Assembly: GCA_965215505.1 (NCBI GenBank)
Contig: OZ244065.1
Location: forward strand, 3,392,001 to 3,456,000
Direction: 5' to 3'
Length of the DNA stretch: 64,000 nucleotides
DNA from: Capsulimonadaceae bacterium
GTDB lineage: Bacteria > Armatimonadota > Armatimonadia > Armatimonadales > Capsulimonadaceae
The stretch's first letter is position 1, and each line of letters starts with the position of its first letter. Of the stretch, positions 40,631 through 59,418 are shown piece after piece. Below the pieces are notes generated by a model, which made no database searches, was not told where the DNA came from, and was given only the letters and a program-made list of their open reading frames with translations. A program made the translations under genes and the position numbers.

Positions 40631-40723
40631 ACGGTCTCTCCTAGGCAGGAATCCAGACCCGTAGGGGCGAACCTTGTGTTCGCCCTTATCCACTTACTGG
40701 AACCCGCTCACAGGAGACCTGCC

Positions 40724-41701
40724 ATGACCACACTCCCGACACAGCCGTTCGGACCCGACGCCACCCCCGTCTCGCGCATCGCCCTCGGGTGCATGGGCCT
40801 CGCGGGGACCTGGAACCCCGCCGAGGTCGGACCCGAACACCGCCGCAAGGCTATCGCCTCGTTCGAGGCCGCCCTGGAAGCCGGCATCACCTTCTACGAC
40901 CACGCCGACATCTACGGCGGCACGGCCTGCGAGTCGGTCTTCAAAGACTGCCTCGCCGCCGTGCCCGGTAGCCGCGAGAAGATCTTCATCGCCACCAAGG
41001 TCGGCATCCGGTCGGGCTACTACGACCACTCGCCCGACTACATCCGCCAGAGCCTGCGCGGGTCGCTCGGCCGCATGGGCATAGACTCCGTGGACCTGTA
41101 CCAGCTCCACCGGCCCGATCCGCTCACCCACGCCTCCGAAACCGCCGCCGCCTTGGACGAACTCGTGGATCAGGGCCTGATCAAGACCGTCGGCGTCTCC
41201 AACTACTACCCGCAGCAGACCCTGGCCTTGCAGAAGTACCTGAAGGCGCCCATCGTTTCCAACCAGATCGCCATCTCGCTCCTGCGGCTCGACCCCATCT
41301 ACGAGGGCGCGGCGGGCGGCAAGGCGACCAGCGAGGCCGCCACCTGTGATGCGGGCGACGGCGTCCTGGACCAGTGCGAGGAGCTAAACATCACGCCCCT
41401 GGCCTACAGCCCCCTGGGCGGCGGCTGGCTGTCCGGGCGGCGCGAGCCGGCCGCCGACACGAACCCCGCCGTCAAGCGCACCCTGGAAGCCCTGCGCGAG
41501 ATGGCCCCCGCCTACGGTGACGCCACGCCCGGCCAGCTCGCCCTCGCCTGGCTGCTAGCGCACCCCGCGAAGATCATCCCCCTCGTCGGCTCCAACGACC
41601 CCGCCCACATCCACGAGGCGGCAGGCGCAGCGGCGATCCAACTCTCGCGCACCGACTGGTACAAGCTCTGGACCGCCGCGCGCGGTGTCAGGGTCCCGTG
41701 A
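40724..41701 (+). CDS. Aldo/keto reductase
   Basis: LGCM, DHADIYG, ATKVG, DLYQLHRPD, GVSN, YSPLGGG; AGGAG RBS; GTAG REP at 40661-40686 upstream. Confidence 0.93.
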   Translation: MTTLPTQPFGPDATPVSRIALGCMGLAGTWNPAEVGPEHRRKAIASFEAALEAGITFYDHADIYGGTACESVFKDCLAAVPGSREKIFIATKVGIRSGYYDHSPDYIRQSLRGSLGRMGIDSVDLYQLHRPDPLTHASETAAALDELVDQGLIKTVGVSNYYPQQTLALQKYLKAPIVSNQIAISLLRLDPIYEGAAGGKATSEAATCDAGDGVLDQCEELNITPLAYSPLGGGWLSGRREPAADTNPAVKRTLEALREMAPAYGDATPGQLALAWLLAHPAKIIPLVGSNDPAHIHEAAGAAAIQLSRTDWYKLWTAARGVRVP

Positions 41702-41846
41702 GGATGCGATGGCCCTCACCCCCCGCCCCTCACCCGCTTGCGGGGGAGGGGCGGGGGCCTCTTATCATACACCTTGCCTCATGCAGATGACTCGCCGTTT
41801 ATGGGTATAGAGGTGTCATCGCTTTCTCTCGAAAGGAACGAACCCC

Positions 41847-42203
41847 ATGAGCAACGACACATCAGACATCGGGCGCGGCGAATGGGCCGCCTTCGCAGAA
41901 GACTTCAGCAAGCGGCACCAGGGGGCGACCGCCTCCCTGGAGTCGGTCGGCGCGGACGATGGCGACCAGTACGCCGCCGAGAACCTGCCCTTCGTCGGCA
42001 TGACCCTGGAGAGCAAGGGCAGCGCCGCCGGCTCGCTCGTCCTGATGCTCGGGGCGGAGGGGTCGGACCACATGGAGCGCCTGATCGCCGCCCCCCAGAG
42101 CCTGCGAACCCACGTCAGCCCTAACGGCGAGACGGTGCTGGAGATCAAGGCGGAGGGCGAGCCGACCCTGCTCCTGCACCTCCAGGCCCCGAAGGGGGCA
42201 TAG
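41847..42203 (+). CDS. DUF5335-like hypothetical protein
   Basis: I.RGEWAAFAEDFSKRHQG...LPFVGMT pattern; AAAGGA RBS. Confidence 0.6.
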   Translation: MSNDTSDIGRGEWAAFAEDFSKRHQGATASLESVGADDGDQYAAENLPFVGMTLESKGSAAGSLVLMLGAEGSDHMERLIAAPQSLRTHVSPNGETVLEIKAEGEPTLLLHLQAPKGA

Positions 42204-42211
42204 AGGGCGGC

Positions 42212-42240
42212 TTGACAAGCCGCGTCAGGGCGGGTATAAT
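42212..42240 (+). promoter_or_regulatory. Perfect sigma70 consensus promoter
   Basis: TTGACA-17 nt-TATAAT. Confidence 0.85.
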
Positions 42241-42287
42241 CCGCGCGTCCGGAACGGAGTCCGGGCGACTCGCACTAAGGACGGGCC

Positions 42288-42824
42288 ATGAGACAGCGGA
42301 TACTCGCCCTGCTCGCCGAGGGCAAGACGTACAGCCAGATCGTGGCCGAAGTCGGCTGCGCCAAGTCCACCGTGGCCTATCACGCCAAAAACGTGAAAGA
42401 ACCGCCGAACTACAAAGTCCACGACTGGGCCGAGGTGCAGAAGCATCACGATGTGGGGCATGGTGTTAACGACTGCCGCAGGCATTTCGGTATTTGCCGC
42501 TCCGTGTGGTATAATGCTGTTAAGTCCGGCAAACTCATCGCCCGCGCGGACTACCGGATACCGATGGATGTGCTGCTGTCGCCGGAGCGCAACACGCCCC
42601 GTTCTCATGTGCGGTGGCGTCTCATCGGGGATGGCGTGCTTGAAGAGAAATGCGCGAGATGTGGCATAACGGAGTGGATGGGCAAGCCGCTGTCCATGCA
42701 TCTGCACCACATCAATGGGGTAAAGACCGACAATAGGCTGGAAAACTTGCAGCTAATCTGCCCGCACTGCCATTGTCAGACCGACAACTTCGCAGGTAGG
42801 AACGTAAATAAGAATACAAAATAA
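42288..42824 (+). CDS. HTH-HNH endonuclease
   Basis: N-terminal HTH (GKTYSQIVAEVGCAKSTVAYH); CARCG...HLHHING..TDNRLENL.LICPHCH. Confidence 0.9.
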   Translation: MRQRILALLAEGKTYSQIVAEVGCAKSTVAYHAKNVKEPPNYKVHDWAEVQKHHDVGHGVNDCRRHFGICRSVWYNAVKSGKLIARADYRIPMDVLLSPERNTPRSHVRWRLIGDGVLEEKCARCGITEWMGKPLSMHLHHINGVKTDNRLENLQLICPHCHCQTDNFAGRNVNKNTK

Positions 42825-42827
42825 TGG

Positions 42828-42900
42828 TGCCGGATAGTTCAGTTGGCAGAACGACACACTCTGGATGTGTAGGTCCTAGGTTCGAGTCCTAGTCCGGCAG
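42828..42900 (+). tRNA. tRNA-Gln (CTG)
   Basis: Acceptor TGCCGGA/TCCGGCA, anticodon arm ACACA-CT CTG GA-TGTGT, T arm CTAGG-TTCGAGT-CCTAG; CCA not encoded. Confidence 0.93.
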
Positions 42901-42905
42901 CTCAC

Positions 42906-42948
42906 AAAACGCCCCCGCTTGAAACATCAAGCGGGGGCGTTTTTGTTT
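42906..42948. terminator. Intrinsic (likely bidirectional) terminator
   Basis: AAAACGCCCCCGCTTGA-AACA-TCAAGCGGGGGCGTTTTT. Confidence 0.85.
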
Positions 42949-43404
42949 TCACTCTTTGGGAAGCAGCCGCCACACCTGCACCAGCAGGACGAGCGCATGG
43001 CCGGTCCAGAAGGCCGTGCGGAGCCAGTTAGTGGCAACTAAGCGGGCGATGGCGGCCCCGTCATAGCCGCGCCCGAGGGCATCGTGGAGCGGGACGGAGA
43101 CGAAAAAGGTCACGGCCCAGGTCAGCACGGCGAACGCGAATCCGGCCCAGAGCAGGCCGGGCGCGAGCCAGGCGGGACGTGTCAGGGCGAGCAGGCCGGA
43201 CGTGCCAAGCTCCGTCACCATGGCGGGCAGGACGACCAGGGTCATCAGGCGGGTGTGGCCCGCATGGTAGTCTGCCCAGTGTTGGGGGCCGACGCGGGCG
43301 AACAGGGGGTAGTGGACGAGCTGGACGGTCCAAATGACGCCCCACATATAGAGGGTCGCGGCCAGATCCAGTAAAAACAGCGGCGCAAAAAGTGCTTTCG
43401 GCAT
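42949..43404 (-). CDS. Membrane protein (DUF1772-like)
   Basis: Four TMs; IWTVQLVHYPLF, SVPLH..L, NWLRT. Confidence 0.75.
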   Translation of the reverse strand: MPKALFAPLFLLDLAATLYMWGVIWTVQLVHYPLFARVGPQHWADYHAGHTRLMTLVVLPAMVTELGTSGLLALTRPAWLAPGLLWAGFAFAVLTWAVTFFVSVPLHDALGRGYDGAAIARLVATNWLRTAFWTGHALVLLVQVWRLLPKE

Positions 43405-43505
43405 GGCATACTATACCCCGTACCGGAAGCGCGTGGGAACCCGCGCGCCTCGGGGAACGTCAGTGAAGAGGCCGCAGAGACGCGGCGACCCAAGGAGAAG
43501 TACCC

Positions 43506-44411
43506 ATGCGCCCGTATCTCGTCCCCGCCGCCCTGCTGCTTTCGCTGTGCCTCAGCCCCCTCGCCGCCCAGACGCCGCCCCTCCCGGCGAATACACCCGT
43601 GAATGCCCCTGCCGATGCCCCGACCGCTGCCGACCTGAACCTGGGCGGCTACCCGGTCCTGCGCCTGCACGGGGCGGCGGGCGGCCTGACCCCCGAGCAG
43701 CGCATCAATGTCATCCTGAGCCGGGTGACGCCCCTGCTCGGCGACCCGGTCATCCTGCCCTCCGACGTCGTCGTCTATCTGCCGCCGCCCAAGAGCCGCA
43801 CGAACCGCTATCCGGTCATCTACGCCCTGGGGCGGCGGCTGATCACCGTGGACCCCGCGACGGTCAAGGCGGCGGGGGGCGGCAGGACGCCCCTGCAAGT
43901 GGCGACGCTGTGGGCCGCGCGGCTCCAGCAGGTCCTGCCGCGCGTCAACTGGCGGCCTTCCAATGCCCCCGAGCCGAAGATCCCCGCCCACCCGCCGCTC
44001 CTCGTGACGACCGACTTCACCATGGTCGGCGGCGGCAATGCCGCCGTGATGCTGCGCGGTAAGGTCATCCTGAGAGTGCGCGGCCCGCAGCAGGGCGGCC
44101 TGACGGCGGCCGAGCGGGCGGACATGCTCACGGCCCGGCTGCAACACCTGGCGAACCAGGCCGCCGCCACCGCCCCGGACGCGGTCACGGTGGCCTCGAC
44201 GCCCACGGGGGACGCCTCGCTCGCCCTCGCCGGGACGACATTGCTCTCCGTCACCGCCCAGGACGCGGCGGCGGCCAACGTCGCCCGGCCTGCCCTGCTC
44301 GCCGAGTCCTGGGCCAAAAACCTGCGTGCCGTCCTGACGCCGCCCGCGCCCGTCATACCCGCCCCTGTCGCTCCCGCCCCGGCGGCGGACGCACCGCTTG
44401 CGGGCGGGTGA
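43506..44411 (+). CDS. Hypothetical secreted protein with an internally repeated domain
   Basis: AAGGAG RBS, signal peptide, two GGLT(P/A).ER...W units. Confidence 0.7.
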   Translation: MRPYLVPAALLLSLCLSPLAAQTPPLPANTPVNAPADAPTAADLNLGGYPVLRLHGAAGGLTPEQRINVILSRVTPLLGDPVILPSDVVVYLPPPKSRTNRYPVIYALGRRLITVDPATVKAAGGGRTPLQVATLWAARLQQVLPRVNWRPSNAPEPKIPAHPPLLVTTDFTMVGGGNAAVMLRGKVILRVRGPQQGGLTAAERADMLTARLQHLANQAAATAPDAVTVASTPTGDASLALAGTTLLSVTAQDAAAANVARPALLAESWAKNLRAVLTPPAPVIPAPVAPAPAADAPLAGG

Positions 44412-44488
44412 CCCTCTTGGCCCTGCTCCCCCGCCCTACATCCTGAACCCGTAGGGGCGGGGTCCCCCCGCCCTCCTGCTACAGCCTC

Positions 44489-46146
44489 TTAAAGCGTGTG
44501 CTTCACCGGATCGTAGTTGATCTCGCCTACACCTGCTCTGGCGACGAAGTTGCTGGGGTTGTTGGGGTTGGGGAATCCCACCATCAGATCCATCTGCTTC
44601 TTGCCGTCCCTCTCATACAACCCGCCCCCAAGCGCAGATCATTGAACCGCGTGATCGTCTCAGGAGGAGTCGCTTCCACCCAGCTACCGAGTGCGTCCAG
44701 GGCGTCCACCATCAGTGTCACCGCGAATGCCCGCCCTTCCTGCTCCGACAGGGCGGACAGGGCTATGCGCCCGTCCCGAGACTTAACTTTCGGCTCCGCC
44801 GCCGTCCGTATCTGCTTGACGGCAGACACCAAAAGCGGGGAAAGGCCGGACGGGAACGGCGAGGCGGGGCCGGCAGGGGCGAAGCGGTTGTGCAGGCGGT
44901 AGGCGCGGACCAACGGGTCGGGCAGGGCCTGGAGGATCGAGTCGTGCAGGGCGATCAGGTTCAGCGGGACCCCCGCCGTCCGCCGGGTCAGGCGCAGGCG
45001 GTCGTGCCCCCCTTCCTTGTCGCCGGTGAAGACCCGCAGGCCGTACACCTCCGCCAGGGCTGCCAGCTCCTGCCTCGGCGTTGCCGCCTCCGCGCCGAAG
45101 ATGGTGGCGCGCTTGGGGGCTAGGTACGGTTCAACGGTCACCTTCAGGCCGTCGTCGGCGCGGGCGTTTAGCCGGGTGACAAGTTCCGCCAAAGAAGAGC
45201 TGACGGGCGGGGCAGGCTGTAGGGCGTTCGCCTGCACGGGATCGGGGTCGGTCGCGTCGGGCGCGGCGGTGAGCTGCATCATCGTGGCCGGCGTCGGCGG
45301 CGGCTCCCCCTCCCCCGCCACGGGGTGGATCACCAGACCGCCCCCCGGATGTACCTCCACCTGGTTGGGCTTGCTCAGGATCTGAAAGCCCTGATACGCG
45401 AGGGGGGCGTCATAGCCGAATAGCCGGGCACTCATCTGGGGGAAGTAGTGCCACCCGAACTGAGGGTCCGCAGGGCCACGGCTGATCGTCCCAAGGACAG
45501 TCGGCAGATCCTTGATTGCCCGCTGCACATAGAAGTGCATGACGAGCTGCTGCACCTCCTGCTGCTGGACCGGTGCCAGCGAGGCTACCGGCACACCCCC
45601 TTTGTTATCCGCCATCGCGCCAAGCTGCTCCGGCGTCAGTGAGTAGACGAGGTCTTTGATGGCGGGGCTGTTATCAATCTCGTCGTTCGGGAAGTTTGGG
45701 TTGAAGTTCTCGGCGTAGCGGCCGGCTTCTTCCAGGCCGAGCGCACATTCCTTGGCGGTGACGCTGGGTAGGTCCGCCGCATCCGTATAACGCTTCTTCA
45801 GCAGGAATACTCTACCGGAGGGCTGCACGTCGTAGTCGTAGGCTGCGGCCAGCCTGGGCAGCAGGGTGGACAGCGGCTCGCCGTTCGGGTTCAGCTCCAG
45901 CCCCGCCGCCTCCTGCGGCATCAGAGCCGGGTGCAAGGGCTGGTCCTCCGCGACGAGGGCGACGTGGGCTTGCTGTGCGAGGGCGGTGAATGCGGAGAAG
46001 AAGGTGGCGGCTTGGGCAGGGGTGATCTGGACGCGGGGATCGGGAGCGGCAGACTGCGCCCCGGCGAAACCGGGAACAGCAGAGGCGAAGCAAAAGACCA
46101 GCGGCAGTAGAGCCGCCATTGCGGCGCGATGCATTCTGTTCGGCAT
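44489..46146 (-). CDS. Hypothetical secreted protein, probably frameshifted near the 3' end
   Basis: Signal peptide; ORF stops at 44584, but one extra G in the G5 run (44625-44629) gives ...GGGLYERDGKKQMDLMVGFPNP...DPVKHTL* ending at 44489. Confidence 0.65.
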
Positions 46147-46206
46147 GTCAGCCTCCCCACCGGAATGCTCCGGTGGCTTCCGTACCAGGCAAAACTCTCG
46201 GGGAAC

Positions 46207-46371
46207 AGGGCGCGATGAGTTGCGCCCCTACGCGGCCCGGACCGCGCTGTCCAATGGCATTATCCGAAGCCCCGAAGCGGGCGGCCCACCGGCGAAGCCG
46301 GGAACAGACCGGCCGTTTATGGCCGGTCACTTTGGGCCGGTCACTTTGGGCCGGTCACTTTGGGCCGGTCA
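46207..46371. repeat. REP cluster (GTAG REP, family D REP, 14-bp tandem of about 4 copies)
   Basis: AGGGCGCGATGAGTTGCGCCCCTAC; CCCCGAAGCGGGCGGCCCACCGGCGAAGCCGGGAA; GGCCGGTCACTTTG repeats. Confidence 0.8.
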
Positions 46372-46391
46372 TGTTCGCCACCGCGACCGGC

Positions 46392-46943
46392 TCACGCCCG
46401 GTCGCCCCGTACCATCCCGTACACCACCAGGTCTTCATACGCGCCGTCCTTGAGGACGTGCCCGCGCAGCAGGCCCTCCCGCGTCATGCCGATCTTCTGC
46501 ATGACCCGTCCTGACGCGGGGTTGCGGGCGAAGTGCGAGGCCGTGATCTTGTGCAGGCTCAGGCCCCGGAAGCCGTAATCCACCAGGGCGGCGGCGGCCT
46601 CGGTGGCATAGCCCTGGCCCCAGAAGGGGACGCCCAGCCAGTAGCCGAGTTCCGCCCGGCTGTGCGGGGACATGATCCCCAGGCTCACGCAGCCGCACAG
46701 GCCGTCCTCTTCGGGCCGCGTGACCGCGTAGACGACGCCGGTCCGGTAGAGGAACTGGTCGGGGTGTCCGGCGATCCACGCTTCGGCCATGCCGTCCGCG
46801 TAGGGGTACGGCACGTTCAGGGTCGTGTCGGCCACCTCCGCCGCCCCCGCCAGCCTCTGGACCTCCGGGGCATCGGCTTGGGTGAACGGCCTGAGCAAAA
46901 GCCGCTTCGTTCGCAGTTCGGGCTGGTCCGGCGTCATCATCAC
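46392..46943 (-). CDS. RimJ/RimL-type GNAT acetyltransferase
   Basis: LRTKRLLLRPF, AELGYWLG..FWGQGYATEA, NPASGRVMQKIGM. Confidence 0.92.
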   Translation of the reverse strand: MMMTPDQPELRTKRLLLRPFTQADAPEVQRLAGAAEVADTTLNVPYPYADGMAEAWIAGHPDQFLYRTGVVYAVTRPEEDGLCGCVSLGIMSPHSRAELGYWLGVPFWGQGYATEAAAALVDYGFRGLSLHKITASHFARNPASGRVMQKIGMTREGLLRGHVLKDGAYEDLVVYGMVRGDRA

Positions 46944-46953
46944 ACCCCTCTAT

Positions 46954-48084
46954 TCAGCCGAGCGCCTTCAGGTTCTCCGGGTTCAGCGGCAGCAGGTCCT
47001 CGGGCACGAACAGGCCGTCTCGGCGGACCAGCACGTCGTCGAAGTAGACCTCCCCGCCGCCGAACTCGGGCCGCTGGATGAACACCATGTCCCAATGCAC
47101 CGTCGAGCGGTTGCCGTTGAAGGCCTCGTCATAGGCCCCGCCCGGCGTGAAGTGGAACGACCCGGCGATCTTCTCGTCGAACAGGATGTCCTTCATCGGC
47201 TGCATCACATACGGGTTGAAGCCCAAGGAGAACTCGCCGATGTAACGCGCGCCCTCGTCGCTGTCCAAGATCTGGTTCAGCATCGTTTCGGTCCCGCCCG
47301 ATGATGTGGCGTGGACGATCTTCCCCTGCTCGAAGTGCAGCGTGACGCCCTCAAAGACCGTCCCCTGGTAGATGGTCGGCGTGTTGAAGGCGATGGTGCC
47401 GTTCACCGAGTCGCGGACCGGGGCCGTGAAGATCTCCCCGTCGGGGATGTTCGCGTTGCCGGTGCAGGGGATCGTCGGGATGTCCTTGATGGAGAACCGC
47501 AGGTCCGTCCCCGGCCCGGTCAGCCGCACCTTGTCCGCCGCGTCCATGCGCTGCTTCAGGGGCGCGATGACCGGGGCGAGGCTGGCGTAGTCGAAGGTGC
47601 AGACGTCGAAGTAGAAGTCTTCAAACGCCTCCGTACTCATCCCGGCCTGCTGCGCCATCGAGGGCGTCGGCCAGCGCAGGACCACCCATTTCGTGTGCGG
47701 GACGCGCGTCTGGGAGTGGACGGGGTTCCACCAGAGCGACCGCTGGAGCTTCATGCGCTCGTCGGGCACGTCCGACAGTTCCGTGCTGTTCTCGGCCCCG
47801 CGCACGCCGATGTAGGCGTCCATCTCGGCCATACGCGCCTTCTCGAATTTGCCGGTCAGCCGCATCTGCTCTTCGGAGGCGTTCTTGTAGAGCGCGCGCA
47901 GGACGCTGTTGCGCTTGACGGTGACGAACGGCAGCCCGCCCGCCTCGGCGACGCGCTCCACGAGGGCGGTCACGACTTCATCGGGGACATCATAAGCCTC
48001 CACCAGCACCTTCTCTCCGGGCTGGACGTGGGTTGAGTAGCCGACGAGGACGTCGGCGAGCTTTGCGACACGGGGGTCTTTCAT
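46954..48084 (-). CDS. Aminopeptidase, peptidase M29 family
   Basis: NIPDGEIFTAP, ARYIGEFSLG, LFDEKIAGSFHFTPG, NRSTVHWDMV. Confidence 0.93.
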   Translation of the reverse strand: MKDPRVAKLADVLVGYSTHVQPGEKVLVEAYDVPDEVVTALVERVAEAGGLPFVTVKRNSVLRALYKNASEEQMRLTGKFEKARMAEMDAYIGVRGAENSTELSDVPDERMKLQRSLWWNPVHSQTRVPHTKWVVLRWPTPSMAQQAGMSTEAFEDFYFDVCTFDYASLAPVIAPLKQRMDAADKVRLTGPGTDLRFSIKDIPTIPCTGNANIPDGEIFTAPVRDSVNGTIAFNTPTIYQGTVFEGVTLHFEQGKIVHATSSGGTETMLNQILDSDEGARYIGEFSLGFNPYVMQPMKDILFDEKIAGSFHFTPGGAYDEAFNGNRSTVHWDMVFIQRPEFGGGEVYFDDVLVRRDGLFVPEDLLPLNPENLKALG

Positions 48085-48194
48085 GGGAGGCTCCTAAAGA
48101 AACGTAAGGGGTGTGTTGGGGAGAGTATACCCAGGATAACGGGGGCGCGTCGAACGGGGGCGTCGGACCCGGCGTTAAACCGCCGGTCTACACG

Positions 48195-48318
48195 GATGGG
48201 CCGCCCGCTTCGGGGCTTCGGATGGCGTGGGACCGAATGGGAACCTGATCTGTATCTGTAGCCCCGAAGGGGCGGCCCACCGGCGAAGCCGGGAGTAGAC
48301 TGGCCCTTCAGGGCCGGG
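48195..48318. repeat. REP family D inverted pair
   Basis: GGGCCGCCCGCTTCGGGGCT ... AGCCCCGAAGGGGCGGCCCACCGGCGAAGCCGGGA. Confidence 0.75.
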
Positions 48319-48356
48319 ACGCCTCACGCCCCGCCGCGCCTCACGCCCGACTGCAC

Positions 48357-48998
48357 CTACGCCCCGCCTTCCTTCCGCAGCGCCGCGAACCCCGCCACGC
48401 CCCAGGCGGCGGCGCGCGGCGTCCGGTGTTCCGAGGTCACGCGGTAGCCGTGCCGCGCATAAAACCGGCGCGCGGCGGCGTTGTCGAGTTCCGCGTGGAG
48501 GCACACCATCGGGCAGCCCGCCCCCGCCGCGTCCCGGTCCACCGCGGCGAGAAGTCGGCTGCCGATGCCCCGCCCGCGCCTATCGGGGCGGACGGCCAGG
48601 ATGCTGAGGTAGTAAGCCTCGCGCGGCGGGGGCGTCGTCGCGCTCCAGAAGGCGCGGACGACCGGCAGCAGGCGCAGGGGCGCCCACAGGCCCCGGTAGC
48701 GCGGCAGCAGGTACAGCATCCGCCATGAATTCTGGCGGCGTGCCCAGGCGGGCGCGGCCAGGGCCAGGCCGACCACTTCGCCCCCTTGAACGGCCACCAG
48801 GGCGGACTGGTAGCTGAACGGCACGTCGGACCGGGCGAACAGCCGCTCGAAGAAGCGCACGGCGTCAGCAGGGCGCGGCCCGAACACGCGGTCGAACAGG
48901 GCCGGCCCCGCCTCGCGGATCAGCGGCGCGGCCTCGCGGGCGTCGTCAGGGGTCGCGGGCCGCAGGGTGATCGCATCGGAAGGCGTGGAACCGGACAT
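48357..48998 (-). CDS. GNAT family acetyltransferase
   Basis: LAVRPDRRGRGIGSRLL, NAAARRFYARHGY. Confidence 0.9.
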   Translation of the reverse strand: MSGSTPSDAITLRPATPDDAREAAPLIREAGPALFDRVFGPRPADAVRFFERLFARSDVPFSYQSALVAVQGGEVVGLALAAPAWARRQNSWRMLYLLPRYRGLWAPLRLLPVVRAFWSATTPPPREAYYLSILAVRPDRRGRGIGSRLLAAVDRDAAGAGCPMVCLHAELDNAAARRFYARHGYRVTSEHRTPRAAAWGVAGFAALRKEGGA

Positions 48999-49102
48999 GG
49001 CATCAGTATACCGGACGGCGAAAAGAAACCGCGCCCCTGAAAGGCGTGGGCGCTCTGCTTTGGGTAAGAGGAAACCATCGTGATCTTCTCGCGGAGGTGG
49101 GT

Positions 49103-49987
49103 ATGGAAACCATGAATCACTCAGAGTTCCTGGCCGACGTCGGCCTCCCGGCGGTCCTCTCCAGCCGGCCGCAAGGCTGGCCGGGCGTCGTCCTGGAACA
49201 GCAGAAACAGCCGCCGAGTGAGTTTGAGGTGCCGCCGCTCTCCCAGCATCTCGTCGTCTTCCTGCTCGGAGGGGCGGTCCCTTTGGTTCAGGAACGGGGC
49301 GGCCAGACCCGGCGCGGGAAGCTCGTGCCGGGCGAGATATTGGTGATGCCGGCGGGCCAGCCGAGTCACTGGATCTCGGAGGGTGCCGTCAATGCGGTCC
49401 ACCTGCTGCTGTCGCCGGACTTCATCGCCCGGACCGCCGAAGCCGTCGGGATGACGCCCGACCGGGCGGAGGTGGTGGACAGCTTCGGGACGCTGGACCC
49501 CCGCCTGGAGCAGATCGGGCGAATGCTGCTCGACGAGGCACAGACGGCGGGGCTAGGCGGACGCCTCTACGCCGAGTCGCTGATCAACGTCCTGGCCGTG
49601 CATGTGCTCCGGCGCTACTCCGCGTCCGGCGAGGTCCCCTCCCGGCCCGCCGGCGGCCTCCCCCAGCTCGGCCTGGGCCGCGCCCTCGAGTACATCAACG
49701 ACAACCTGGACCTGGACCTGTCGCTCTCCGGAATCGCCCAGGCCGCCGAGATCAGCCCCAACTCCCTTGCCGCCCGGTTCAAGCAGTCTACGGGCCTCGC
49801 GCCCCACCAGTACGTCATCAAGCGAAGGGTGGAGCGGGCGCGGAGCCTGCTCCTGGGCGGCGGGCTGTCCATCGGCGAGGTCGCGGCACAGGTCGGGTTT
49901 TACGACCAGAGCCACCTGACCCGCCACTTCAAGCGCCTCACCGGCGTCACCCCCAGCCGCCTACTGTCGGAGCATGAGCGGGCGTAA
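49103..49987 (+). CDS. AraC family transcriptional regulator
   Basis: C-terminal double HTH (FKQSTGLAPHQYV, VGFYDQSHLTRHFKRLTGVTP); GGAGG RBS. Confidence 0.93.
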   Translation: METMNHSEFLADVGLPAVLSSRPQGWPGVVLEQQKQPPSEFEVPPLSQHLVVFLLGGAVPLVQERGGQTRRGKLVPGEILVMPAGQPSHWISEGAVNAVHLLLSPDFIARTAEAVGMTPDRAEVVDSFGTLDPRLEQIGRMLLDEAQTAGLGGRLYAESLINVLAVHVLRRYSASGEVPSRPAGGLPQLGLGRALEYINDNLDLDLSLSGIAQAAEISPNSLAARFKQSTGLAPHQYVIKRRVERARSLLLGGGLSIGEVAAQVGFYDQSHLTRHFKRLTGVTPSRLLSEHERA

Positions 49988-50045
49988 GAACGTCCCAAAG
50001 GCCGCCAGAACGTCCAAGACGCTGCAAAGCCGGTTCCAGTATAAT
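49987..50045 (+). promoter_or_regulatory. Putative AraC-activated promoter
   Basis: AGAACGTCC direct repeat 20 bp apart (49987, 50007), followed by TATAAT at 50040. Confidence 0.6.
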
Positions 50046-50078
50046 GGAGGCGCACAATCCGGCACGGGAGGAAAATCC

Positions 50079-50765
50079 ATGAAGATCGGCATCATCGGGA
50101 CGGGCAACATGGGCCGCTCCCTGGGCATCCTCTGGGCCGAACAGGGGCATGACGTGTTCTTCGGGGCGCGCGACGCCGGCAAGGCTGAGGCCGCCGCGCA
50201 TCTCGCCGGGCGCGGGGCGGGGCACGGCACGAACGACGAGGCGGCCTCCTTCGGCGAGGCCGTCTTTTACTCGGCGCGGGGCATAGACCCCGCCGAGGTG
50301 CTGACCGACGTGCGCGTCCTGGACGGGAAAACGGTCATTGACGCGAACAACGGCCCGATCCCGGACGGCTTCGCCTACGCGCCGATCACCGTCTCGCTGG
50401 CCGAGGCCTTGCAGGCGCAGATTCCCGCAGCCCGTGTGGTCAAGGCGTTCAACACCATGTCCCAGGAGACTTTCGAGCTGGCCCCGGAGCCGCTCCGCCG
50501 GCAGCACGTCTCCGTCTTCGTCGCGGGCGACGACGCGGCGGCGCGGCGGACGGTCATGGGGCTGGCGGAGCAGATCGGATTCGTGCCGGTGGACTGCGGC
50601 GGGCTGCGGAATGCGCGGCTGATCGAAGGGCTGGGCGACTTCATCCGGTTCGTGATGATCGGCCAGGGCCAGGGGGCGTACACCGCGCTCTCGGTCCACC
50701 CGCTCCCGCAGCCCCAGGGGGCGGCGCGGCTGGGCGGTCGGCAGTCATCCGGCCTGGACTCGTGA
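50079..50765 (+). CDS. NADP oxidoreductase, F420_oxidored family
   Basis: MKIGIIGTGNMG, GKTVIDANN, VVKAFNT, VAGDD. Confidence 0.88.
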   Translation: MKIGIIGTGNMGRSLGILWAEQGHDVFFGARDAGKAEAAAHLAGRGAGHGTNDEAASFGEAVFYSARGIDPAEVLTDVRVLDGKTVIDANNGPIPDGFAYAPITVSLAEALQAQIPAARVVKAFNTMSQETFELAPEPLRRQHVSVFVAGDDAAARRTVMGLAEQIGFVPVDCGGLRNARLIEGLGDFIRFVMIGQGQGAYTALSVHPLPQPQGAARLGGRQSSGLDS

Positions 50766-50790
50766 CACGGCCGGGTCAGAAAGAGGAGAA

Positions 50791-51615
50791 ATGAACGTCA
50801 GCGTGTATTCGGAGCCGGGCTTCGCCTCGGTGAACTCCTATGTGGTGGACGTCGGGGAAGGCTTATGCATCATTGACACCCAGCGCTCCCTTTCCTCGGC
50901 CCGGAAGCTGCTGGCGGTGGTGGAGGAGGCGGCGAAGCCCGTCCTGGGCGTCTTCATCACCCACCCGCACCCCGACCACATCGGCGGCCTGCCCGCAGTG
51001 GCGCGGGCCTATCCGCAGGCCCCGATTTACGCCCTACAGACGACCCGCGACAGCATCCGGTCGGACGCGGGCGGCTACATCACCCTCTCGAAGCAGGTAC
51101 TCGGCGACGACTTTGACGAGGACATCCCCGTCCCCGACCATGCCGTCTCCTCCGGGGACGAGCTGCGGGTGGGGGCCGTGGAGTGGCGGGTCGAAGACGC
51201 CGGGCCGGGCGAGGCCCCCTGCATGATGATGCTGCACGCGCCTGAAGCCGGGACGCTGTTCTGCGCCGACGTTGTGCAGCACGGGATGACGGCCTTTCTC
51301 CTGGAAGGCCGCTCGGAAGCCTGGCTCCGGCAGGTGGAGGCGGTCGCCGGCAGATACGGCTCCGTCCCCGTGGTCTATCCGGGGCACGGCGTCCACGGTG
51401 CCGGCGGCGCGCTGTTCGCCTTCCAGAGAGAGTATCTGGGCCGGTTCCAGAGGCTGGTGGCGCAGAACAGGACCGGGGGCGGCTCGGTTTCCGCCGAAGG
51501 CAAGCAGAAGATCGTGGCGGAGATGGGGCGTCTCTACCCCGGCTACCAGCCCGTGGCGGCCATCCCCGATCTGTTGGAGCAGGACGTGGATGCCTTGCAG
51601 AAAGAGATGAGTTGA
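50791..51615 (+). CDS. MBL-fold metallo-hydrolase
   Basis: THPHPDHIGG, PGHG. Confidence 0.9.
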   Translation: MNVSVYSEPGFASVNSYVVDVGEGLCIIDTQRSLSSARKLLAVVEEAAKPVLGVFITHPHPDHIGGLPAVARAYPQAPIYALQTTRDSIRSDAGGYITLSKQVLGDDFDEDIPVPDHAVSSGDELRVGAVEWRVEDAGPGEAPCMMMLHAPEAGTLFCADVVQHGMTAFLLEGRSEAWLRQVEAVAGRYGSVPVVYPGHGVHGAGGALFAFQREYLGRFQRLVAQNRTGGGSVSAEGKQKIVAEMGRLYPGYQPVAAIPDLLEQDVDALQKEMS

Positions 51616-51643
51616 GGCATGGCCTCAGAATCCGTGCCGCGCC

Positions 51644-52438
51644 TCAGAATCCGTGCCGCCTCAGCCACGCCGCGCAGTGTACGGGCCACGTTCCAAGTAT
51701 GGGGTCGCCTGGAGCGAGACCAAACCCATGTGGGCCGCTCTCGTACAGGTGCATCTCCACCGGCACACCCGCGCCGCGCAGGGCAAGGGCCAGCAGCAGG
51801 CTGTTCTCGGCGGGGACGCCCGCGTCGTCAGCCGTATGCACCAGAAAGGTCGGCGGCGTGTCCGGCGTGACGTGCAGGTGGTTGGACAGCGAGGCGGCCA
51901 GCTCTTCGGTCGCGTCCGCGCCGAGCAGGTTGTGGCGCGACCCGCCATGTCCGTGCGGCTCTTGCAGGCTGATGACCGGGTAGACCAGGACAGCCAGATC
52001 GGGCCGTGACGAGAAACGGCCCAGCGGCTCCGGCGCGTGGGGGTCGCCCGCCTCAAAGTGCGTCGCCAGCGTGGAAGCCAAATGCCCGCCCGCCGAGAAG
52101 CCCAGGATGCCGATGCGGGCCGGGTCCAGGCCGTCGGCCAGGGCGCGGACCGTCCGGATGGCGCGGGCGGCGTCGTCGAGCATGGCCGGGTGGCGCGAGT
52201 GCGGCCCCAGCCGGTAGTGCAGCACAAACGCCGTAATGCCTAATGTGTTCAGCCACTCGGCGACGTCTTTCCCCTCATGGCCCGCGTGCATCCCGTACCC
52301 CCCGCCGGGGCAGACGACCACCGAGGCCCCCGTCTTCCCCTCAAGCGGGTCGTAGCGGGTCAGGGTCTGCGGGGTGACGTTCTCACCGAAAGCGGCCGAT
52401 TGCGGCCAGAGCGGCCGGGGCGTGGGCGTCATGCTCAT
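51644..52438 (-). CDS. Alpha/beta hydrolase (esterase)
   Basis: CPGGGY, GFSAGG, PPTFLVH..DD..V, HGFG. Confidence 0.9.
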   Translation of the reverse strand: MSMTPTPRPLWPQSAAFGENVTPQTLTRYDPLEGKTGASVVVCPGGGYGMHAGHEGKDVAEWLNTLGITAFVLHYRLGPHSRHPAMLDDAARAIRTVRALADGLDPARIGILGFSAGGHLASTLATHFEAGDPHAPEPLGRFSSRPDLAVLVYPVISLQEPHGHGGSRHNLLGADATEELAASLSNHLHVTPDTPPTFLVHTADDAGVPAENSLLLALALRGAGVPVEMHLYESGPHGFGLAPGDPILGTWPVHCAAWLRRHGF

Positions 52439-52449
52439 ATCCACCGCGC

Positions 52450-53448
52450 TCATATCCACCGCGCGTTCGGCCCGAAGTCCGCCGAATAGTAGTTGCTGAC
52501 GTGTGTGCCGGGCGGGAAGATCGCATCCAGAGCCTTGTTGTCTTCCTCCGTCACCGTGATCTCCATGGCTTTCAGATAGTCCTCCATCTGCTCCGCCGTG
52601 CGCGGCCCGATGATCGGGCTTGTGACGCCCGGCTGAGCCAAACACCAAGCCAACGCCATCCGCACCGGGGTCACACCGCGCGCCTCGCAGAAAGGCAAAT
52701 ACTGCTCAACGGCGGCCAAAGCGGCGTCGTTGTCCCGGTTGTTGAACGCGCCCTTCTCGTACCGCGCCCCCGCAGGCCGCGTCTGCCCCAGCCGGTACTT
52801 GCCGGACAGCAGCCCGCCCGCGATGGGTGCCCAGGGGATGACGCCGACGCCGTAGGTGCGGCAGAACGGCAGTAATTCGCGCTCGATGCGCCGGTCCAGC
52901 AGGTTGTACGGCGGCTGCTCGCAGACGAAGCGGTTCAGGTGCAGCTCCTTGGAGGCCCAAAGCGACTCCACGAGCTGCCACGCGGCGAACGTGCTGGTCC
53001 CGATGTAGCGCACCTTGCCCGACTTCACCAGGTCATCGAGCGCCCGCAAAGTCTCGTCAATCGGGATGGACGACTTGGGCCGGTGGATCTGATACAAGTC
53101 TATGTGGTCCGTCCCCAGCCGCCGCAGCGAGTCCTCGCAGGCTTTAATCAAGTGGAACCGGTGGCTGCCCCAGGCGTTCGGGTCAGTGTCGTCCATCTTG
53201 TTGTAGCCCTTGGTCGCGAGGAACACTTGATCCCGCTTCCCGTCCCGCGCCAAGGCTTTTCCGACGATGGTTTCCGAGACGCCCCGGCTGTAGACGTCGG
53301 CGGTGTCCAGGAAGTTGACGCCCGCCGCCATCGCCTGGTCAATGATGCCGAACGACTCCTGCTCGTCCGCGCCGTCCCCGAAGTTCATGCAGCCCAGGCA
53401 GAGCGGGCTGACCTGAACCCCCGTCCGCCCTAAAGTCCGATAGTCCAT
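52450..53448 (-). CDS. Aldo/keto reductase
   Basis: MDYRTLGRTG..VSPLCLGCM, DTADVYS, DLYQIHRP, EQPPYN. Confidence 0.93.
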   Translation of the reverse strand: MDYRTLGRTGVQVSPLCLGCMNFGDGADEQESFGIIDQAMAAGVNFLDTADVYSRGVSETIVGKALARDGKRDQVFLATKGYNKMDDTDPNAWGSHRFHLIKACEDSLRRLGTDHIDLYQIHRPKSSIPIDETLRALDDLVKSGKVRYIGTSTFAAWQLVESLWASKELHLNRFVCEQPPYNLLDRRIERELLPFCRTYGVGVIPWAPIAGGLLSGKYRLGQTRPAGARYEKGAFNNRDNDAALAAVEQYLPFCEARGVTPVRMALAWCLAQPGVTSPIIGPRTAEQMEDYLKAMEITVTEEDNKALDAIFPPGTHVSNYYSADFGPNARWI

Positions 53449-53494
53449 GTGTGTCTCCTCATGTTGGCCCCCCGCCCGCGCGGGGGTCATAACC

Positions 53495-53625
53495 GTAGGG
53501 GCGCGATTCATCGCGCCCTCTTCTCCATTCGCCCTCTTCTGGAAAGGGCGAACACCCTGGAAGGGCGAACACAAGGTTCGCCCCTACGACACCGGGCTGT
53601 AGGGCGCGAACCTTGTGTTCGCCCT
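53495..53625. repeat. Cluster of three GTAG-family REPs
   Basis: GTAGGGGCGCGATTCATCGCGCCCT; AGGGCGAACACAAGGTTCGCCCCTAC; GTAGGGCGCGAACCTTGTGTTCGCCCT. Confidence 0.85.
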
Positions 53626-53865
53626 TTCGTTCTCAGGCAGGGCGCGCACCGGCATGTCCTCCTGTGCTGAGGCCGCCGCAAAGGTGATTACCGCACGCAC
53701 GTCTCCTTCCGTAATCGTCGGGAAGTCCCCCAATATCTCCGCCACCGTCGCCCCTTCCCGCAGGCTCGCGAGGACAGTCCGCAGGGTGACACGGGTTCCC
53801 CTGATTACTGCTTCGCCGCCGCAGACTTTCGGGTCTCGGCTAAAGTGCTGTTGATAGTCCATCAT
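53584..53865 (-). CDS. DUF433 family protein (antitoxin-type)
   Basis: DPKVCGGEAVIRGTRV...GATVAEILGDFPTITEGDVRA; C-terminus runs into a REP. Confidence 0.88.
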   Translation of the reverse strand: MMDYQQHFSRDPKVCGGEAVIRGTRVTLRTVLASLREGATVAEILGDFPTITEGDVRAVITFAAASAQEDMPVRALPENERANTRFAPYSPVS

Positions 53866-54178
53866 AAATCCTCACTCCTCGCTCCAAGATCTCGCTCTCC
53901 AGCGAGGCATAGACACGGCTGGCCCTGTCCACCTCCGCCTGTGTCTCTACTAGAACGTCTTTGGGCATGTTCAAGTCGCGTAGACAGCGACGTGCCCGGA
54001 AGTCCCTTTCCCCCCGTGACAGTTGGCTTTGCGGGAGGATGATGAACAAATCCACGTCGCTGTTTTCATTCGGCTGCCCCCACGCATAGGAGCCGAACAA
54101 GTATATCTGGTGCGGCTGGAACTCCGCCACCAGCCGCCGGGTCATTTCTTTGAGTATGCTTTCCACTTCTGCGACCAT
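53840..54178 (-). CDS. Minimal nucleotidyltransferase (MNT)
   Basis: IYLFGSYAWG.P...SDVDL, EILERGVRIY. Confidence 0.88.
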   Translation of the reverse strand: MVAEVESILKEMTRRLVAEFQPHQIYLFGSYAWGQPNENSDVDLFIILPQSQLSRGERDFRARRCLRDLNMPKDVLVETQAEVDRASRVYASLESEILERGVRIYDGLSTAL

Positions 54179-54196
54179 TTGAGTTGCTCCTAACGC

Positions 54197-54835
54197 CTAC
54201 TCCTGCTGCAAGTCCCGCACCTGGCCTGTGTACAATCCCTGGTGCCGGTGCTGCGCGTCCACCCACGAGACAGGGAAGGTTTCGCGCCCCAGCACGACCG
54301 CGTCGATCGCCGCCCGCATCTGCCGGGCGCAGGTGTTCGGGCCGACCCGCCCGACGCCCGTGCCCAGGCCGGGGAAGGCGAGGCTGTCCACGAAGTCCGC
54401 AATTCGTTCTCCCGCGTAGGTCCCCCGCGTAAACGTGCCGTGCGTCACCAGCAGCAGGGCCGCCCGCGCGGCGAGGTACGGGTTCACGCTGTCGCGCAGG
54501 ATGGTCGGGACGCGCATGGTCGGCGCGGCGACAAGGAACGGCAGGGCGGGGTCGCCCGTCTCGACGATCTCCGCCGCCCCCACCAGCAGTTCCCCGTGGT
54601 GGCTCTCGCGGATGGCCTCTTGCAGACGCTCCTGCACGCCCCAGCCGAAGTGCTGCGTGTAGAGCATGTCGATCCCGCCGTCCATGAACCCGAAGGAATT
54701 GGCCGGGCTGACCACGGCGTCACACGAAAGGTCAAAGACTGAGCCGCGATGCACAGTGACAAACGGCAGGTCGCCGCAGAATCGCTCCCAGGCGTCGGCC
54801 AGGGCGTCTTCCACCGAGGTCAGGATGATGTTCAT
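54197..54835 (-). CDS. Macro-domain protein
   Basis: DAVVSPANSFGFMDGGID, APTMRVP, PGLGTGVG. Confidence 0.9.
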   Translation of the reverse strand: MNIILTSVEDALADAWERFCGDLPFVTVHRGSVFDLSCDAVVSPANSFGFMDGGIDMLYTQHFGWGVQERLQEAIRESHHGELLVGAAEIVETGDPALPFLVAAPTMRVPTILRDSVNPYLAARAALLLVTHGTFTRGTYAGERIADFVDSLAFPGLGTGVGRVGPNTCARQMRAAIDAVVLGRETFPVSWVDAQHRHQGLYTGQVRDLQQE

Positions 54836-55158
54836 TTTTGCGCCTCTACTCCCGTCACAACACCGTAGATGTCGCTCCGGTCAACCCAACCGTCCACGCG
54901 CCCCTGATGGCTGCCGATCAGGAACCGTTCGCCCTTCACGGAGAGGATGCCATGCAGGACGACATGCGCGAACCGCTTGCCCTGGATGCGGACCAGCACG
55001 ATGTCACCCACCGTCAGTTCTCCCGCCCGGCACGGCGTCAGCGTGACCAGGTCGCCGTCACTGATGCGCCCGGTCATCGAGTGCCCGCGCGGCCTCACCT
55101 CTACCGTCCGGCCTTCCTGCAAGGCTACTCCCGCTTCTGTTGACCAGTCAATAGCCAC
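54832..55158 (-). CDS. S24/S26 peptidase-like protein
   Basis: PRGHSM..RI.DGDLVT, GDIVLV; ATGA overlap with the macro gene. Confidence 0.75.
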   Translation of the reverse strand: MAIDWSTEAGVALQEGRTVEVRPRGHSMTGRISDGDLVTLTPCRAGELTVGDIVLVRIQGKRFAHVVLHGILSVKGERFLIGSHQGRVDGWVDRSDIYGVVTGVEAQK

Positions 55159-55170
55159 CTCAGAATAAAG

Positions 55171-55326
55171 TCATCGCCCGGTGGCCTGTTCGAGTTCGTA
55201 CCGCATTTCTTCCTCCGTCCACTCCTCATCTTCCAGGGGAGGCAGCGCGGCATCTAGGTCACACGCCGCATCCTGCTGGACCAACACTAGCTGCCCTTCC
55301 TCGATTACGCCGGTCATTTCAGTCAT
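55171..55326 (-). CDS. Small acidic protein (51 aa), not in ORF track
   Basis: MTEMTGVIEEGQLVLVQQDAACDLDAALPPLEDEEWTEEEMRYELEQATGR; GGGGA RBS; fills the gap in the operon. Confidence 0.55.
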   Translation of the reverse strand: MTEMTGVIEEGQLVLVQQDAACDLDAALPPLEDEEWTEEEMRYELEQATGR

Positions 55327-55344
55327 GTACTATCCCCATGCTGG

Positions 55345-55698
55345 TTACGGCTGGTACTCCACCGTCAGCGCGAATGCCCTTGCAATCTGTGCGAGCGTTT
55401 CCTCCGACAGAATGCCCAGCCTGTTCCCGAAGCGCTCCAGGGACGCGCCGCGCATCTGGAACGCATCGGCGGCAGAGAGCTTGGTCAGGCCGCTGGCAGG
55501 CGTCGCTTCCACGCGCGCCATCCAGAAATAGCGCCGGTAGGTTTCACTCCACCCGGTCAGCGGCACGATCAAGCGGAGCGGCATACGGCCTGCGGCGTCA
55601 GAATTAAGGACAACTGCTGGCCTCGTTTTTTGCAGTTCCGCGCCCCGCGTCGGTTCCAGGTTCACCCACCAGATTTCACCACGAACGGGGTTGATCAC
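55345..55698 (-). CDS. MazF/PemK family toxin
   Basis: RGEIWWVNLEPTRGAELQKTRPAVVL, IVPLT. Confidence 0.92.
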   Translation of the reverse strand: MINPVRGEIWWVNLEPTRGAELQKTRPAVVLNSDAAGRMPLRLIVPLTGWSETYRRYFWMARVEATPASGLTKLSAADAFQMRGASLERFGNRLGILSEETLAQIARAFALTVEYQP

Positions 55699-56029
55699 TG
55701 TGGTGCTCCTCCATGACGGGATCGCCATCAAGGGCCGTGAATGCGGTCAGCTCTCGCTGTTCCATGGGAAGCGCCAAGTCCGCCGCATAAAGGGGCGCCG
55801 CCTCGTCGAACTGCGCTGCCATGATGCGCCGCCTTTCTTCCAGGGGTAGGGACAGCAGGTAGGCGGGGTCGGACTCGCGGGGCCGCCCGGTGTCCCCCGC
55901 AGGCTCGTGTCGCTCGCCGTTGCCACCCGGCTCGCCAAGAATCTGCCTTAAATAGTCAGTCACGTCCTGCCCGTGGCGGGCCGCTCTCTCGCGCAGGCCG
56001 TCCTCAATGTCCGCCGGTAGTTCTAACAT
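55676..56029 (-). CDS. Putative cognate antitoxin
   Basis: MLELPADIEDGLRERAARHGQDVTDYL (RHH-like), LLSLPLEERRRIM; overlaps the toxin start; AAGGAG RBS. Confidence 0.75.
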   Translation of the reverse strand: MLELPADIEDGLRERAARHGQDVTDYLRQILGEPGGNGERHEPAGDTGRPRESDPAYLLSLPLEERRRIMAAQFDEAAPLYAADLALPMEQRELTAFTALDGDPVMEEHHSDQPRSW

Positions 56030-56049
56030 CTGCTTCTCCTTTTCGGTGC

Positions 56050-59175: not shown

Positions 59176-59248
59176 GGGGAGATTATACCTGGAAGCAAGC
59201 GCCCCCGGCCATTCATGGCCGGTCCAAACGCGCCCCCGCAAAAAACCC

Positions 59249-59277
59249 TTGCGCTTTTCCCACACTTATGGTAAAAT
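59249..59277 (+). promoter_or_regulatory. tRNA promoter
   Basis: TTGCGC-17 nt-TAAAAT with TGn extension. Confidence 0.65.
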
Positions 59278-59304
59278 ATCCAGGTCAACATCACCGGCCC
59301 GTGG

Positions 59305-59394: not shown

Positions 59395-59418
59395 CTCGTT
59401 AGGATGTCTGACAAGGAG

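Follow-up and report, generated by a model that had tools for sequence, protein, structure and literature searches.

Homing endonucleases encoded by group I introns in bacterial tRNA genes are a familiar case of selfish nucleases housed in conserved tRNA genes. Free-standing homing endonucleases are already known from phage tRNA clusters, T4 SegB and T5 F-Tfl being examples, and another has been put forward in connection with mobile tRNA arrays of cyanobacteria. The portion of PMC2330249 that treats SegB describes a free-standing gene between tRNA genes, with a 27-bp recognition site whose 11-bp core is the tRNA T-psi-C motif; SegB cleaves tRNA genes in relatives that have no segB, and its inheritance, along with that of the tRNA genes beside it, is close to 100% (PMC2330249). 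The cyanobacterial case, Anabaena all8564, is presented in the relevant part of PMC8421152 as an HNH gene whose place in front of the L-array tRNA operon is conserved, which is co-induced with that operon and is proposed to spread the array. Here we analyse a 64,000-nt stretch of the chromosome of a Capsulimonadaceae soil bacterium (phylum Armatimonadota; genome G000; assembly GCA_965215505.1, contig OZ244065.1, positions 3,392,001 to 3,456,000), hereafter the window, and in it a gene at 42288-42824 that is probably a free-standing, intron-less HNH homing endonuclease residing inside the tRNA-Gln(CTG) transcription unit and belonging to a family addressed to tRNA-Gln genes.

The unit reads along the forward strand as follows (HTH, helix-turn-helix; ORF, open reading frame).

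42212..42240, + strand: sigma-70-type promoter TTGACA-17-TATAAT (TTGACA at 42212-42217, 17-nt spacer, TATAAT at 42235-42240; 12/12 positions)
42241..42287, + strand: leader, with a ribosome-binding site AAGGA at 42277-42281; the left junction of the insertion falls within it
42288..42824, + strand: HTH-HTH-HNH endonuclease gene, an ORF of 178 amino acids plus stop (TAA at 42822-42824)
42828..42901, + strand: tRNA-Gln(CTG), called by ARAGORN and matched by Rfam RF00005 (66.7 bits at 42828-42900)
42906..42950, + strand: intrinsic terminator, a perfect 17-bp stem with a 4-nt loop (hairpin 42906-42943) and a T-run

A preceding sequence-only reading of this DNA had singled out the perfect promoter, an HTH-HNH gene stopping 3 nt before the mature tRNA-Gln(CTG), the terminator behind it, a base composition richer in AT than the host's and the lack of any integrase, transposase, intron or attachment-site duplication, and our analysis bears out each of these. 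The promoter at 42212 was the sole promoter-like site recovered from a scan of both strands of 41700-43100, where shuffled sequences averaged 0.4 sites, and the gap between HNH stop codon and tRNA is 3 nt. The guanine-plus-cytosine (GC) content of the ORF is 0.564, compared with 0.665 for the genome and 0.696 for the upstream flank. Integrase and transposase domains were absent among the large neighbouring ORFs scanned, Rfam matched no intron RNA family, tRNA-Gln(CTG) is uninterrupted and the HNH locus has no flanking direct repeat of note. The source genome is a single contig of 6.18 Mb with 63 tRNA genes, just two of them for tRNA-Gln, and tRNA-Gln(CTG) is single-copy. The tRNA is followed by a comparable hairpin and T-run in every orthologous or empty locus inspected.

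An orthologue occurs in 22 of 23 congeners, and tRNA-Gln(CTG) lies on the same strand, -10 to +22 nt from the HNH stop, in all 19 CTG-type loci for which flank was available. Alleles lacking the HNH gene between the same flanks, which the sequence-only reading had pointed to as informative, were found in one genome of the same genus (G018) and in two from sister genera (G024 and G211). The flank common to occupied and empty alleles is marked by the following gene, recognized in L052, L054 and L055 through BLASTN/TBLASTN synteny.

40676..41701, + strand: aldo/keto reductase gene (Pfam E 1.3e-61), the left-flank marker, outside the element

Empty alleles run from the reductase gene to a TTGACA-17-TAnnnT promoter, a leader of ~25-35 nt and tRNA-Gln(CTG), and in G018, a genome that is 91% complete, downstream synteny is retained as well. 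Occupied orthologous loci carry TTGACA-17/18-TAnnnT 55-80 nt upstream of the HNH start in 17/17 cases, and the alignment of occupied with empty alleles diverges ~10-15 nt past the -10 hexamer. From this comparison the indel comprises the ribosome-binding site and the ORF, ~0.6 kb, placed between the tRNA promoter and the mature 5' end, and the promoter upstream of the HNH ORF is, judged by the alignments, the ancestral promoter of tRNA-Gln(CTG). As with free-standing homing genes, related genomes either have or lack the gene between collinear flanks, and the ORF is the sole cargo, with neither intron nor intein.

A protein search of the source genome returned three places: the gene at 42288, a paralogue beside tRNA-Gln(TTG) and a more distant gene beside tRNA-Val(TAC).

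G000:C1:1169914-1170581 (locus L002, 1364-2031): paralogous HTH-HNH gene, 186 codons, 45% identity, full-length
G000:C1:900311-900913 (locus L003, 1432-2034), - strand: distant HNH gene, 200 amino acids, Cys-rich N-terminus, same HNH core

The ATG of the paralogue is 37 nt 3' of the only tRNA-Gln(TTG) gene in the genome, whose TTGACA-17-TATAAT promoter ends 8 nt before that tRNA. This site was empty in all five congeners tested, with a gap from tRNA to downstream gene of 22-58 nt as against 608 nt in the source genome, and a terminator-like T-run follows the tRNA in empty alleles and the HNH stop codon in the occupied one. TTG-type copies are present in 5/23 genomes of the genus, three of the five being broken. 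The distant ORF overlaps the 5' end of tRNA-Val(TAC) by 15 nt, and its nearest relatives in congeners are located at tRNA-Thr or tRNA-Ala instead. Pfam HNH models match nine places in the source genome, of which the 42288 gene alone is near a tRNA; since the other eight are not, tRNA adjacency is a trait of this clade and not of HNH genes generally.

The association with tRNA genes extends well beyond the genus, in line with what the sequence-only reading had proposed for homologues. Among 50 Armatimonadota loci fetched, a tRNA gene lies within 150 nt in 34 and within 500 nt in seven more (partial-ORF matches); the remaining nine lack a tRNA in range, two being at contig ends and one having a tRNA at 506 nt. 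The adjoining tRNA is on the same strand in 39 loci and on the opposite strand in two. By comparison, a 534-nt segment placed randomly in the source genome finds a tRNA gene within 150 nt in 0.8% of placements and within 500 nt in 1.3%. A scan of contigs from one genome per species yielded at least 577 relatives, and in the best 80 of these, which were used for cross-phylum tRNA counts, the nearest tRNA is tRNA-Gln at 78 loci, 6-730 nt away, the other two being one tRNA-Trp and one contig end. These 80 loci represent Armatimonadota, Actinomycetota (~60, mostly Solirubrobacterales and Thermoleophilia), Chloroflexota, Myxococcota and Vulcanimicrobiota, that is, at least five phyla. A profile search of 1.84 billion cluster representatives gave 755 matches at E <= 1e-30 and 16,138 at E <= 1e-10, and tblastn against a plasmid collection gave one weak actinobacterial match only.

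Actinomycetota copies have their tRNA upstream of the HNH start, with opposite-strand arrangements outnumbering same-strand ones, and opposite-strand copies are divergent at 39-443 nt. Because side and strand vary in this way, the conserved trait is nearness to a tRNA-Gln gene rather than co-transcription with it. The window's ORF does sit in the leader, but the earlier proposal of homing to tRNA 5' leaders has to be widened for the family, which is tied to the tRNA-Gln gene on either side and strand and is not particular to 5' leaders. Two actinobacterial genomes (L163, G535:C69; L164, G505:C1) have one tRNA-Gln(CTG) sandwiched by two family members, one divergent upstream and the other co-oriented downstream. 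Relatives with other N-terminal heads keep other company: those with a Cys-rich head are found at tRNA-Thr (3 loci), tRNA-Ala (2), tRNA-Trp (3) and tRNA-Val (1), and those with a 'GGNY...IDTSHF' head at tRNA-Leu (3) or with no tRNA (6).

tRNA genes often serve as integration sites, so the arrangement might in principle be chance synteny or what is left of a larger island that had integrated there. This explanation is strongly disfavoured, and we give it almost no credence: integrase, transposase, att-like repeat and other cargo are all lacking, the indel is ORF plus ribosome-binding site only, and 78/80 loci across phyla stand against a null of ~1%.

The protein is a member of the HNH / His-Me finger endonuclease superfamily by Pfam score, residues and the beta-beta-alpha fold of its predicted structure. 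Pfam places HTH_7, HTH_23, HTH_28 and GerE above their cut-offs within residues 1-37, and HNH PF01844 (23.6 bits, cut-off 21.4) and HNH_3 PF13392 (26.0 bits, cut-off 24.8) at residues 122-164; no GIY-YIG family is among its Pfam matches. H141, N153 and H162, together with C122, C125, C158 and C161, are invariant in 17 sequences and correspond to the catalytic His and Asn, the metal-ligand His and a CxxC...CxxC zinc site. In an AlphaFold2 (AF2) model with a predicted local distance difference test score (pLDDT) of 86, residues 2-34 and 47-79 each form a three-helix HTH unit; the model also has linker helices and a beta-beta-alpha-metal core (strands 138-141 and 154-157, helix 159-162) in which pLDDT exceeds 90. 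The invariance of the catalytic residues and a median ratio of nonsynonymous to synonymous divergence (omega) of ~0.13 among orthologues indicate that the protein is probably functional. A fold search of the model against the PDB gave nothing at E <= 0.001, its top rows being generic HNH proteins (Cap5, McrA, PacI) and generic HTH proteins, and a profile search of PDB sequences returned HTH proteins only and no solved close relative. An IscB / OMEGA label was rejected at 14.7 bits against a cut-off of 175 and with no RuvC domain, and a McrA label was rejected on score or architecture.

The closest non-cellular relatives are phage genes. Residues 93-177 align to profile positions 75-159 of 245 in PHROG 10822 'HNH endonuclease' (E 9.5e-27), with the N-terminus unmatched, and the PADLOC 'HEase' (homing endonuclease) model matches at E 6.6e-14; the two other tRNA-linked HNH genes of the source genome match both models too. 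By tblastn, 217 phage records match; of 12 phage contexts that were examined, 10 have a tRNA gene within 30 nt of the HNH gene. These contexts comprise an Erwinia jumbo phage, Gordonia GodonK, T5, a T4-like phage, cyanophage S-CRM01, a crAss-like phage, Rhizobium, Klebsiella and Aeromonas phages and Serratia Slocum (annotated TflIV-like), the exceptions being Streptomyces Cursive, with the nearest tRNA at ~870 nt, and Staphylococcus phiSA012, with none within 700 nt.

Such kinship with genes of phage tRNA clusters is also what would be expected of a defence or interference nuclease that cuts foreign tRNA-bearing DNA, such as phages and integrative elements, and whose position beside a tRNA is a by-product of acquisition from those clusters. 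The HNH domain does match ZorE profiles at E 1e-9 to 1e-11, and its fold resembles the HNH domain of Cap5. We nevertheless consider this very unlikely, as the NCBIfam ZorE model scores 28.3 bits against a cut-off of 600, for which reason, and for want of Zor partners among the neighbours, a ZorE label was rejected; no Zorya, CBASS or other defence partner is nearby; and the pairing of each subfamily with one tRNA identity across phyla and the ORF-only indels at two tRNA-Gln loci would be left unexplained.

The surroundings of the locus differ among congeners in ways that lie outside the element, one of them in the interval between reductase and promoter.

41847..42203, + strand: DUF5335 gene (Pfam E 2.9e-12), a separate indel in the reductase-to-promoter interval, outside the element

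Most congeners carry this gene; it is missing in G015 (L023) and G018 (L052) and largely deleted in G008 (L014). On the downstream side, synteny with congeners stops just past a 151-aa ORF at 42949-43404. tRNA-Ser(GCT), which in most congeners follows ~1 kb further downstream on the strand opposite tRNA-Gln(CTG), lies at 59305-59395 in the source genome, 16.4 kb from tRNA-Gln(CTG) and on its strand. The synteny break and the displaced tRNA-Ser(GCT) suggest that the region beyond the locus (42949-59395) was rearranged or received an insertion. Beside tRNA-Ser(GCT), at window positions 56053-59265 on the - strand, is a 1071-aa ORF for a UvrD/REP-type helicase with an intein splicing domain at residues 338-575 (Pfam E 1.1e-12), between the helicase halves, a possible second selfish element.

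The junction of HNH gene and tRNA is even tighter in some relatives than in the window. In several orthologues the gap from stop to tRNA is 0-1 nt, and at loci L012, L015, L039, L047 and L048 the ORF runs exactly 10 nt into the tRNA, its stop codon being the TAG of tRNA nucleotides 8-10. An ending of this type is found in G011, in the broken G020 copy, in relatives beside tRNA-Leu and tRNA-Thr and, by annotated coordinates, in phages GodonK (L152) and Slocum (L160). Because the stop codon lies within the tRNA, cleavage by RNase P would leave those mRNAs stop-less, and the arrangement suggests that tRNA maturation may limit nuclease synthesis.

Use of the tRNA promoter by the nuclease, as first proposed from the sequence, is supported insofar as the upstream promoter is ancestral to the tRNA, and is qualified by a weak promoter-like site within the ORF. 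The latter is an extended -10-like TGGTATAAT at 42507-42515 on the + strand, ~315 nt before the tRNA, which encodes a conserved Trp-Tyr-Asn and could be either a coding by-product or an internal tRNA promoter. Weaker promoter-like sites occur within the ORF in 7/17 loci, six of them at one homologous place (9-10/12 positions) whose counterpart in the window is TGGTATAAT. RNA runs containing the window's own sequence were not found. Four metatranscriptome runs from one study contain contigs from relatives that are 80-95% alike, some running from the end of the DUF5335 gene through the promoter into the ORF and others from mid-ORF to exactly 42900, at the tRNA 3' end; the uncovered middle of the ORF in these runs carries no meaning.

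These contigs, which bridge ORF and tRNA, also bear on a reading in which the tRNA is a cofactor or substrate, the protein binding or processing tRNA-Gln or its precursor or using it as a guide, with adjacency reflecting co-expression. Strict pairing with a single tRNA identity and the co-oriented ORF abutting the tRNA in Armatimonadota would fit such a role. Co-transcription is not conserved, however, Actinomycetota copies being more often divergent and on the opposite strand. The clade's phage HNH domains are DNases, and the F-Tfl proteins are called site-specific endonucleases in the part of PMC2330249 that deals with them. Together with the IscB score and the missing RuvC domain given above, this makes the cofactor reading highly improbable.

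We next consider residence and mobility. Patchy occurrence, broken copies and a GC content lower than that of the flanks all speak for a mobile element. At E <= 1e-10 the family is present in 34 of 401 genomes of the phylum, and a phylum scan found it in 16/17 genomes of the genus compared with 1/11 in the rest of the family; in one actinobacterial order the tally is 55/151 genomes (including the unpublished G466). CTG-type copies in the genus are broken at five of the 22 loci listed (G004, G020, G019, G015 and G010) and intact at the other 17, and a genome from another genus (G354) has a broken copy too. The GC content of the HNH gene is 7-14 points under that of its flank in 14/14 intact orthologues. 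Orthologues differ by a synonymous divergence (dS) of at least 0.7, the omega given above being the median for the 43 of 91 pairs with dS < 2.5. The tree built from the flanking reductase puts G018 within the clade of occupied genomes (support 98/95), and because of this its empty state is best read as precise loss or replacement by an empty allele.

A long-resident gene under constraint could instead be a domesticated ex-homing nuclease or DNA binder that is kept by the host for a function at the tRNA-Gln locus, for example regulation or protection, and is inherited vertically without mobility. Its presence at the same place in 22/23 congeners, the low omega together with dS >= 0.7, which implies long residence, and the 17/22 listed CTG-type loci that are intact are all compatible with this, as are a consensus promoter shared with a single-copy tRNA and two HTH modules that, in the predicted structure, could form a site-specific DNA binder. 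The HNH gene upstream of the Anabaena tRNA array, reported in the portion of PMC8421152 concerned to be co-induced with that array, offers a parallel. Against domestication, G018 does well without the gene and has a precise empty allele, most sister genera have no copy, and about a quarter of CTG copies and 3/5 TTG copies are broken. Variation in tRNA side, strand and distance by lineage disfavours a fixed regulatory or co-transcriptional role, and the catalytic HNH residues are invariant, which a pure DNA binder would not need. We therefore regard domestication as unlikely, and of the initial characterization as a minimal selfish element we retain the ORF-only, patchily distributed indel, noting that near-fixation and purifying selection would also fit a domesticated role.

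Several points weigh against a homing endonuclease and have to be set beside the evidence in its favour. The gene appears near-fixed in the genus, old and under purifying selection, and such a profile would fit a host-useful protein equally. A further indirect sign of mobility, the disagreement between the HNH tree and that of the reductase gene ~0.6 kb upstream (reductase clade forced on HNH data, approximately unbiased (AU) test p 0.014; HNH clade forced on reductase data, AU p 0.002), comes with optimistic p-values, the groups having been picked once the trees were known. In the empty G018 allele the tRNA sequence is one base away from several occupied alleles, and with tRNAs this nearly identical the immunity of occupied alleles lacks an explanation unless the cleavage site spans the junction or self-cutting is tolerated; at the TTG locus, occupied and empty tRNAs do differ, possibly as a mere matter of phylogeny. 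Given the in-ORF sites in 7/17 loci, a tRNA promoter shared by both genes is putative, and the bridging contigs are a weak hint only, as they cannot show one transcript, its start or its end and may include DNA carry-over. Two of the placements in other phyla, Limnocylindria and Kofleriaceae, come from contigs of ~2 kb and are possible binning errors. Finally, cleavage, a target site at tRNA-Gln and gene conversion are, for the HNH protein, predictions.

With these points taken into account, a free-standing homing endonuclease remains the probable explanation, and we propose that it would operate as follows. The two HTH modules would read conserved sequence of the tRNA-Gln gene, the HNH domain would nick or cut an HNH-less allele in or near that gene, and recombinational repair from an occupied allele would copy the ORF into the empty one. 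In this lineage the ORF would have no promoter of its own and would be transcribed from the strong tRNA promoter. RNase P would then free the tRNA, leaving an mRNA that ends 3 nt past the stop codon or, in some relatives, one that is stop-less, and such stop-proximal or stop-less messages may keep the level of nuclease low.

More speculatively, and with confidence that falls short of even, we suggest that these genes may belong to an old, cross-phylum group of gene-drive-like HNH nucleases on bacterial chromosomes, built from one core and exchangeable DNA-binding heads. Each head would be matched to one tRNA gene (double-HTH to Gln, Cys-rich to Thr, Ala, Trp or Val, a third head to Leu), and the group would borrow the tRNA promoter and, in several lineages, tRNA U8-A9-G10 as a stop, with RNase P throttling the nuclease. 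Such a group could drive the exchange of tRNA alleles between species.

If the proposal is correct, the strategy of phage tRNA clusters is also at work in ordinary bacterial chromosomes, where it targets core tRNA genes present as single copies and has the nuclease ORF as sole cargo between tRNA and promoter, and a specificity of one family for one tRNA holds across at least five phyla. The family would then offer a natural system for studying how selfish nucleases persist in cellular genomes, and a way to ask how an essential target escapes harm, including through a possible coupling of nuclease expression to tRNA processing, and whether tRNA alleles move between species. It would also supply compact candidate nucleases whose DNA targets can be predicted, and annotators could expect 'HNH/McrA-like' ORFs that abut tRNA genes to be such elements.

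Among described systems, the F-TflI/F-TflII/F-TflIV region of T5 is homologous in the HNH core (tblastn, 35% identity over residues 111-178, E 8e-10), and T5p073 (AY734508), 24 nt after tRNA-Ile, is annotated with a LuxR-type HTH and an HNH domain. Like the window's gene, the F-Tfl genes are free-standing in a tRNA transcription unit, and the passage of PMC2330249 devoted to them suggests that tRNA processing limits how strongly they are expressed. They differ in belonging to a lytic phage and a multi-tRNA accessory cluster, whereas the present family occupies bacterial chromosomes at single-copy tRNA-Gln genes; moreover, the alignment covers just 70-105 residues at the C-terminus, and it is the cellular family alone that has the double-HTH N-terminus and pairs strictly with tRNA-Gln. 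T4 SegB, by the same partial account (PMC2330249), works in the way we propose by analogy for the chromosomal family, but it is a GIY-YIG rather than an HNH protein and a phage gene, and it cuts many tRNA genes where one tRNA identity is involved here. Anabaena all8564 resembles the locus as a bacterial HNH gene conserved beside tRNA genes, a likeness drawn from its description in the relevant part of PMC8421152, and contrasts with it in accompanying long mobile accessory arrays of up to 43 tRNA genes rather than a single core tRNA with an ORF-only indel. Unlike the hosts of group I intron endonucleases, tRNA-Gln(CTG) has no intron here. The literature searched contained no paper describing a chromosomal tRNA-Gln-linked HNH family, and what sets the present one apart from these systems, as far as sequence comparison can indicate, is that it appears to be chromosomal, ORF-only, set within a single-copy tRNA's transcription unit and faithful to one tRNA identity across phyla.

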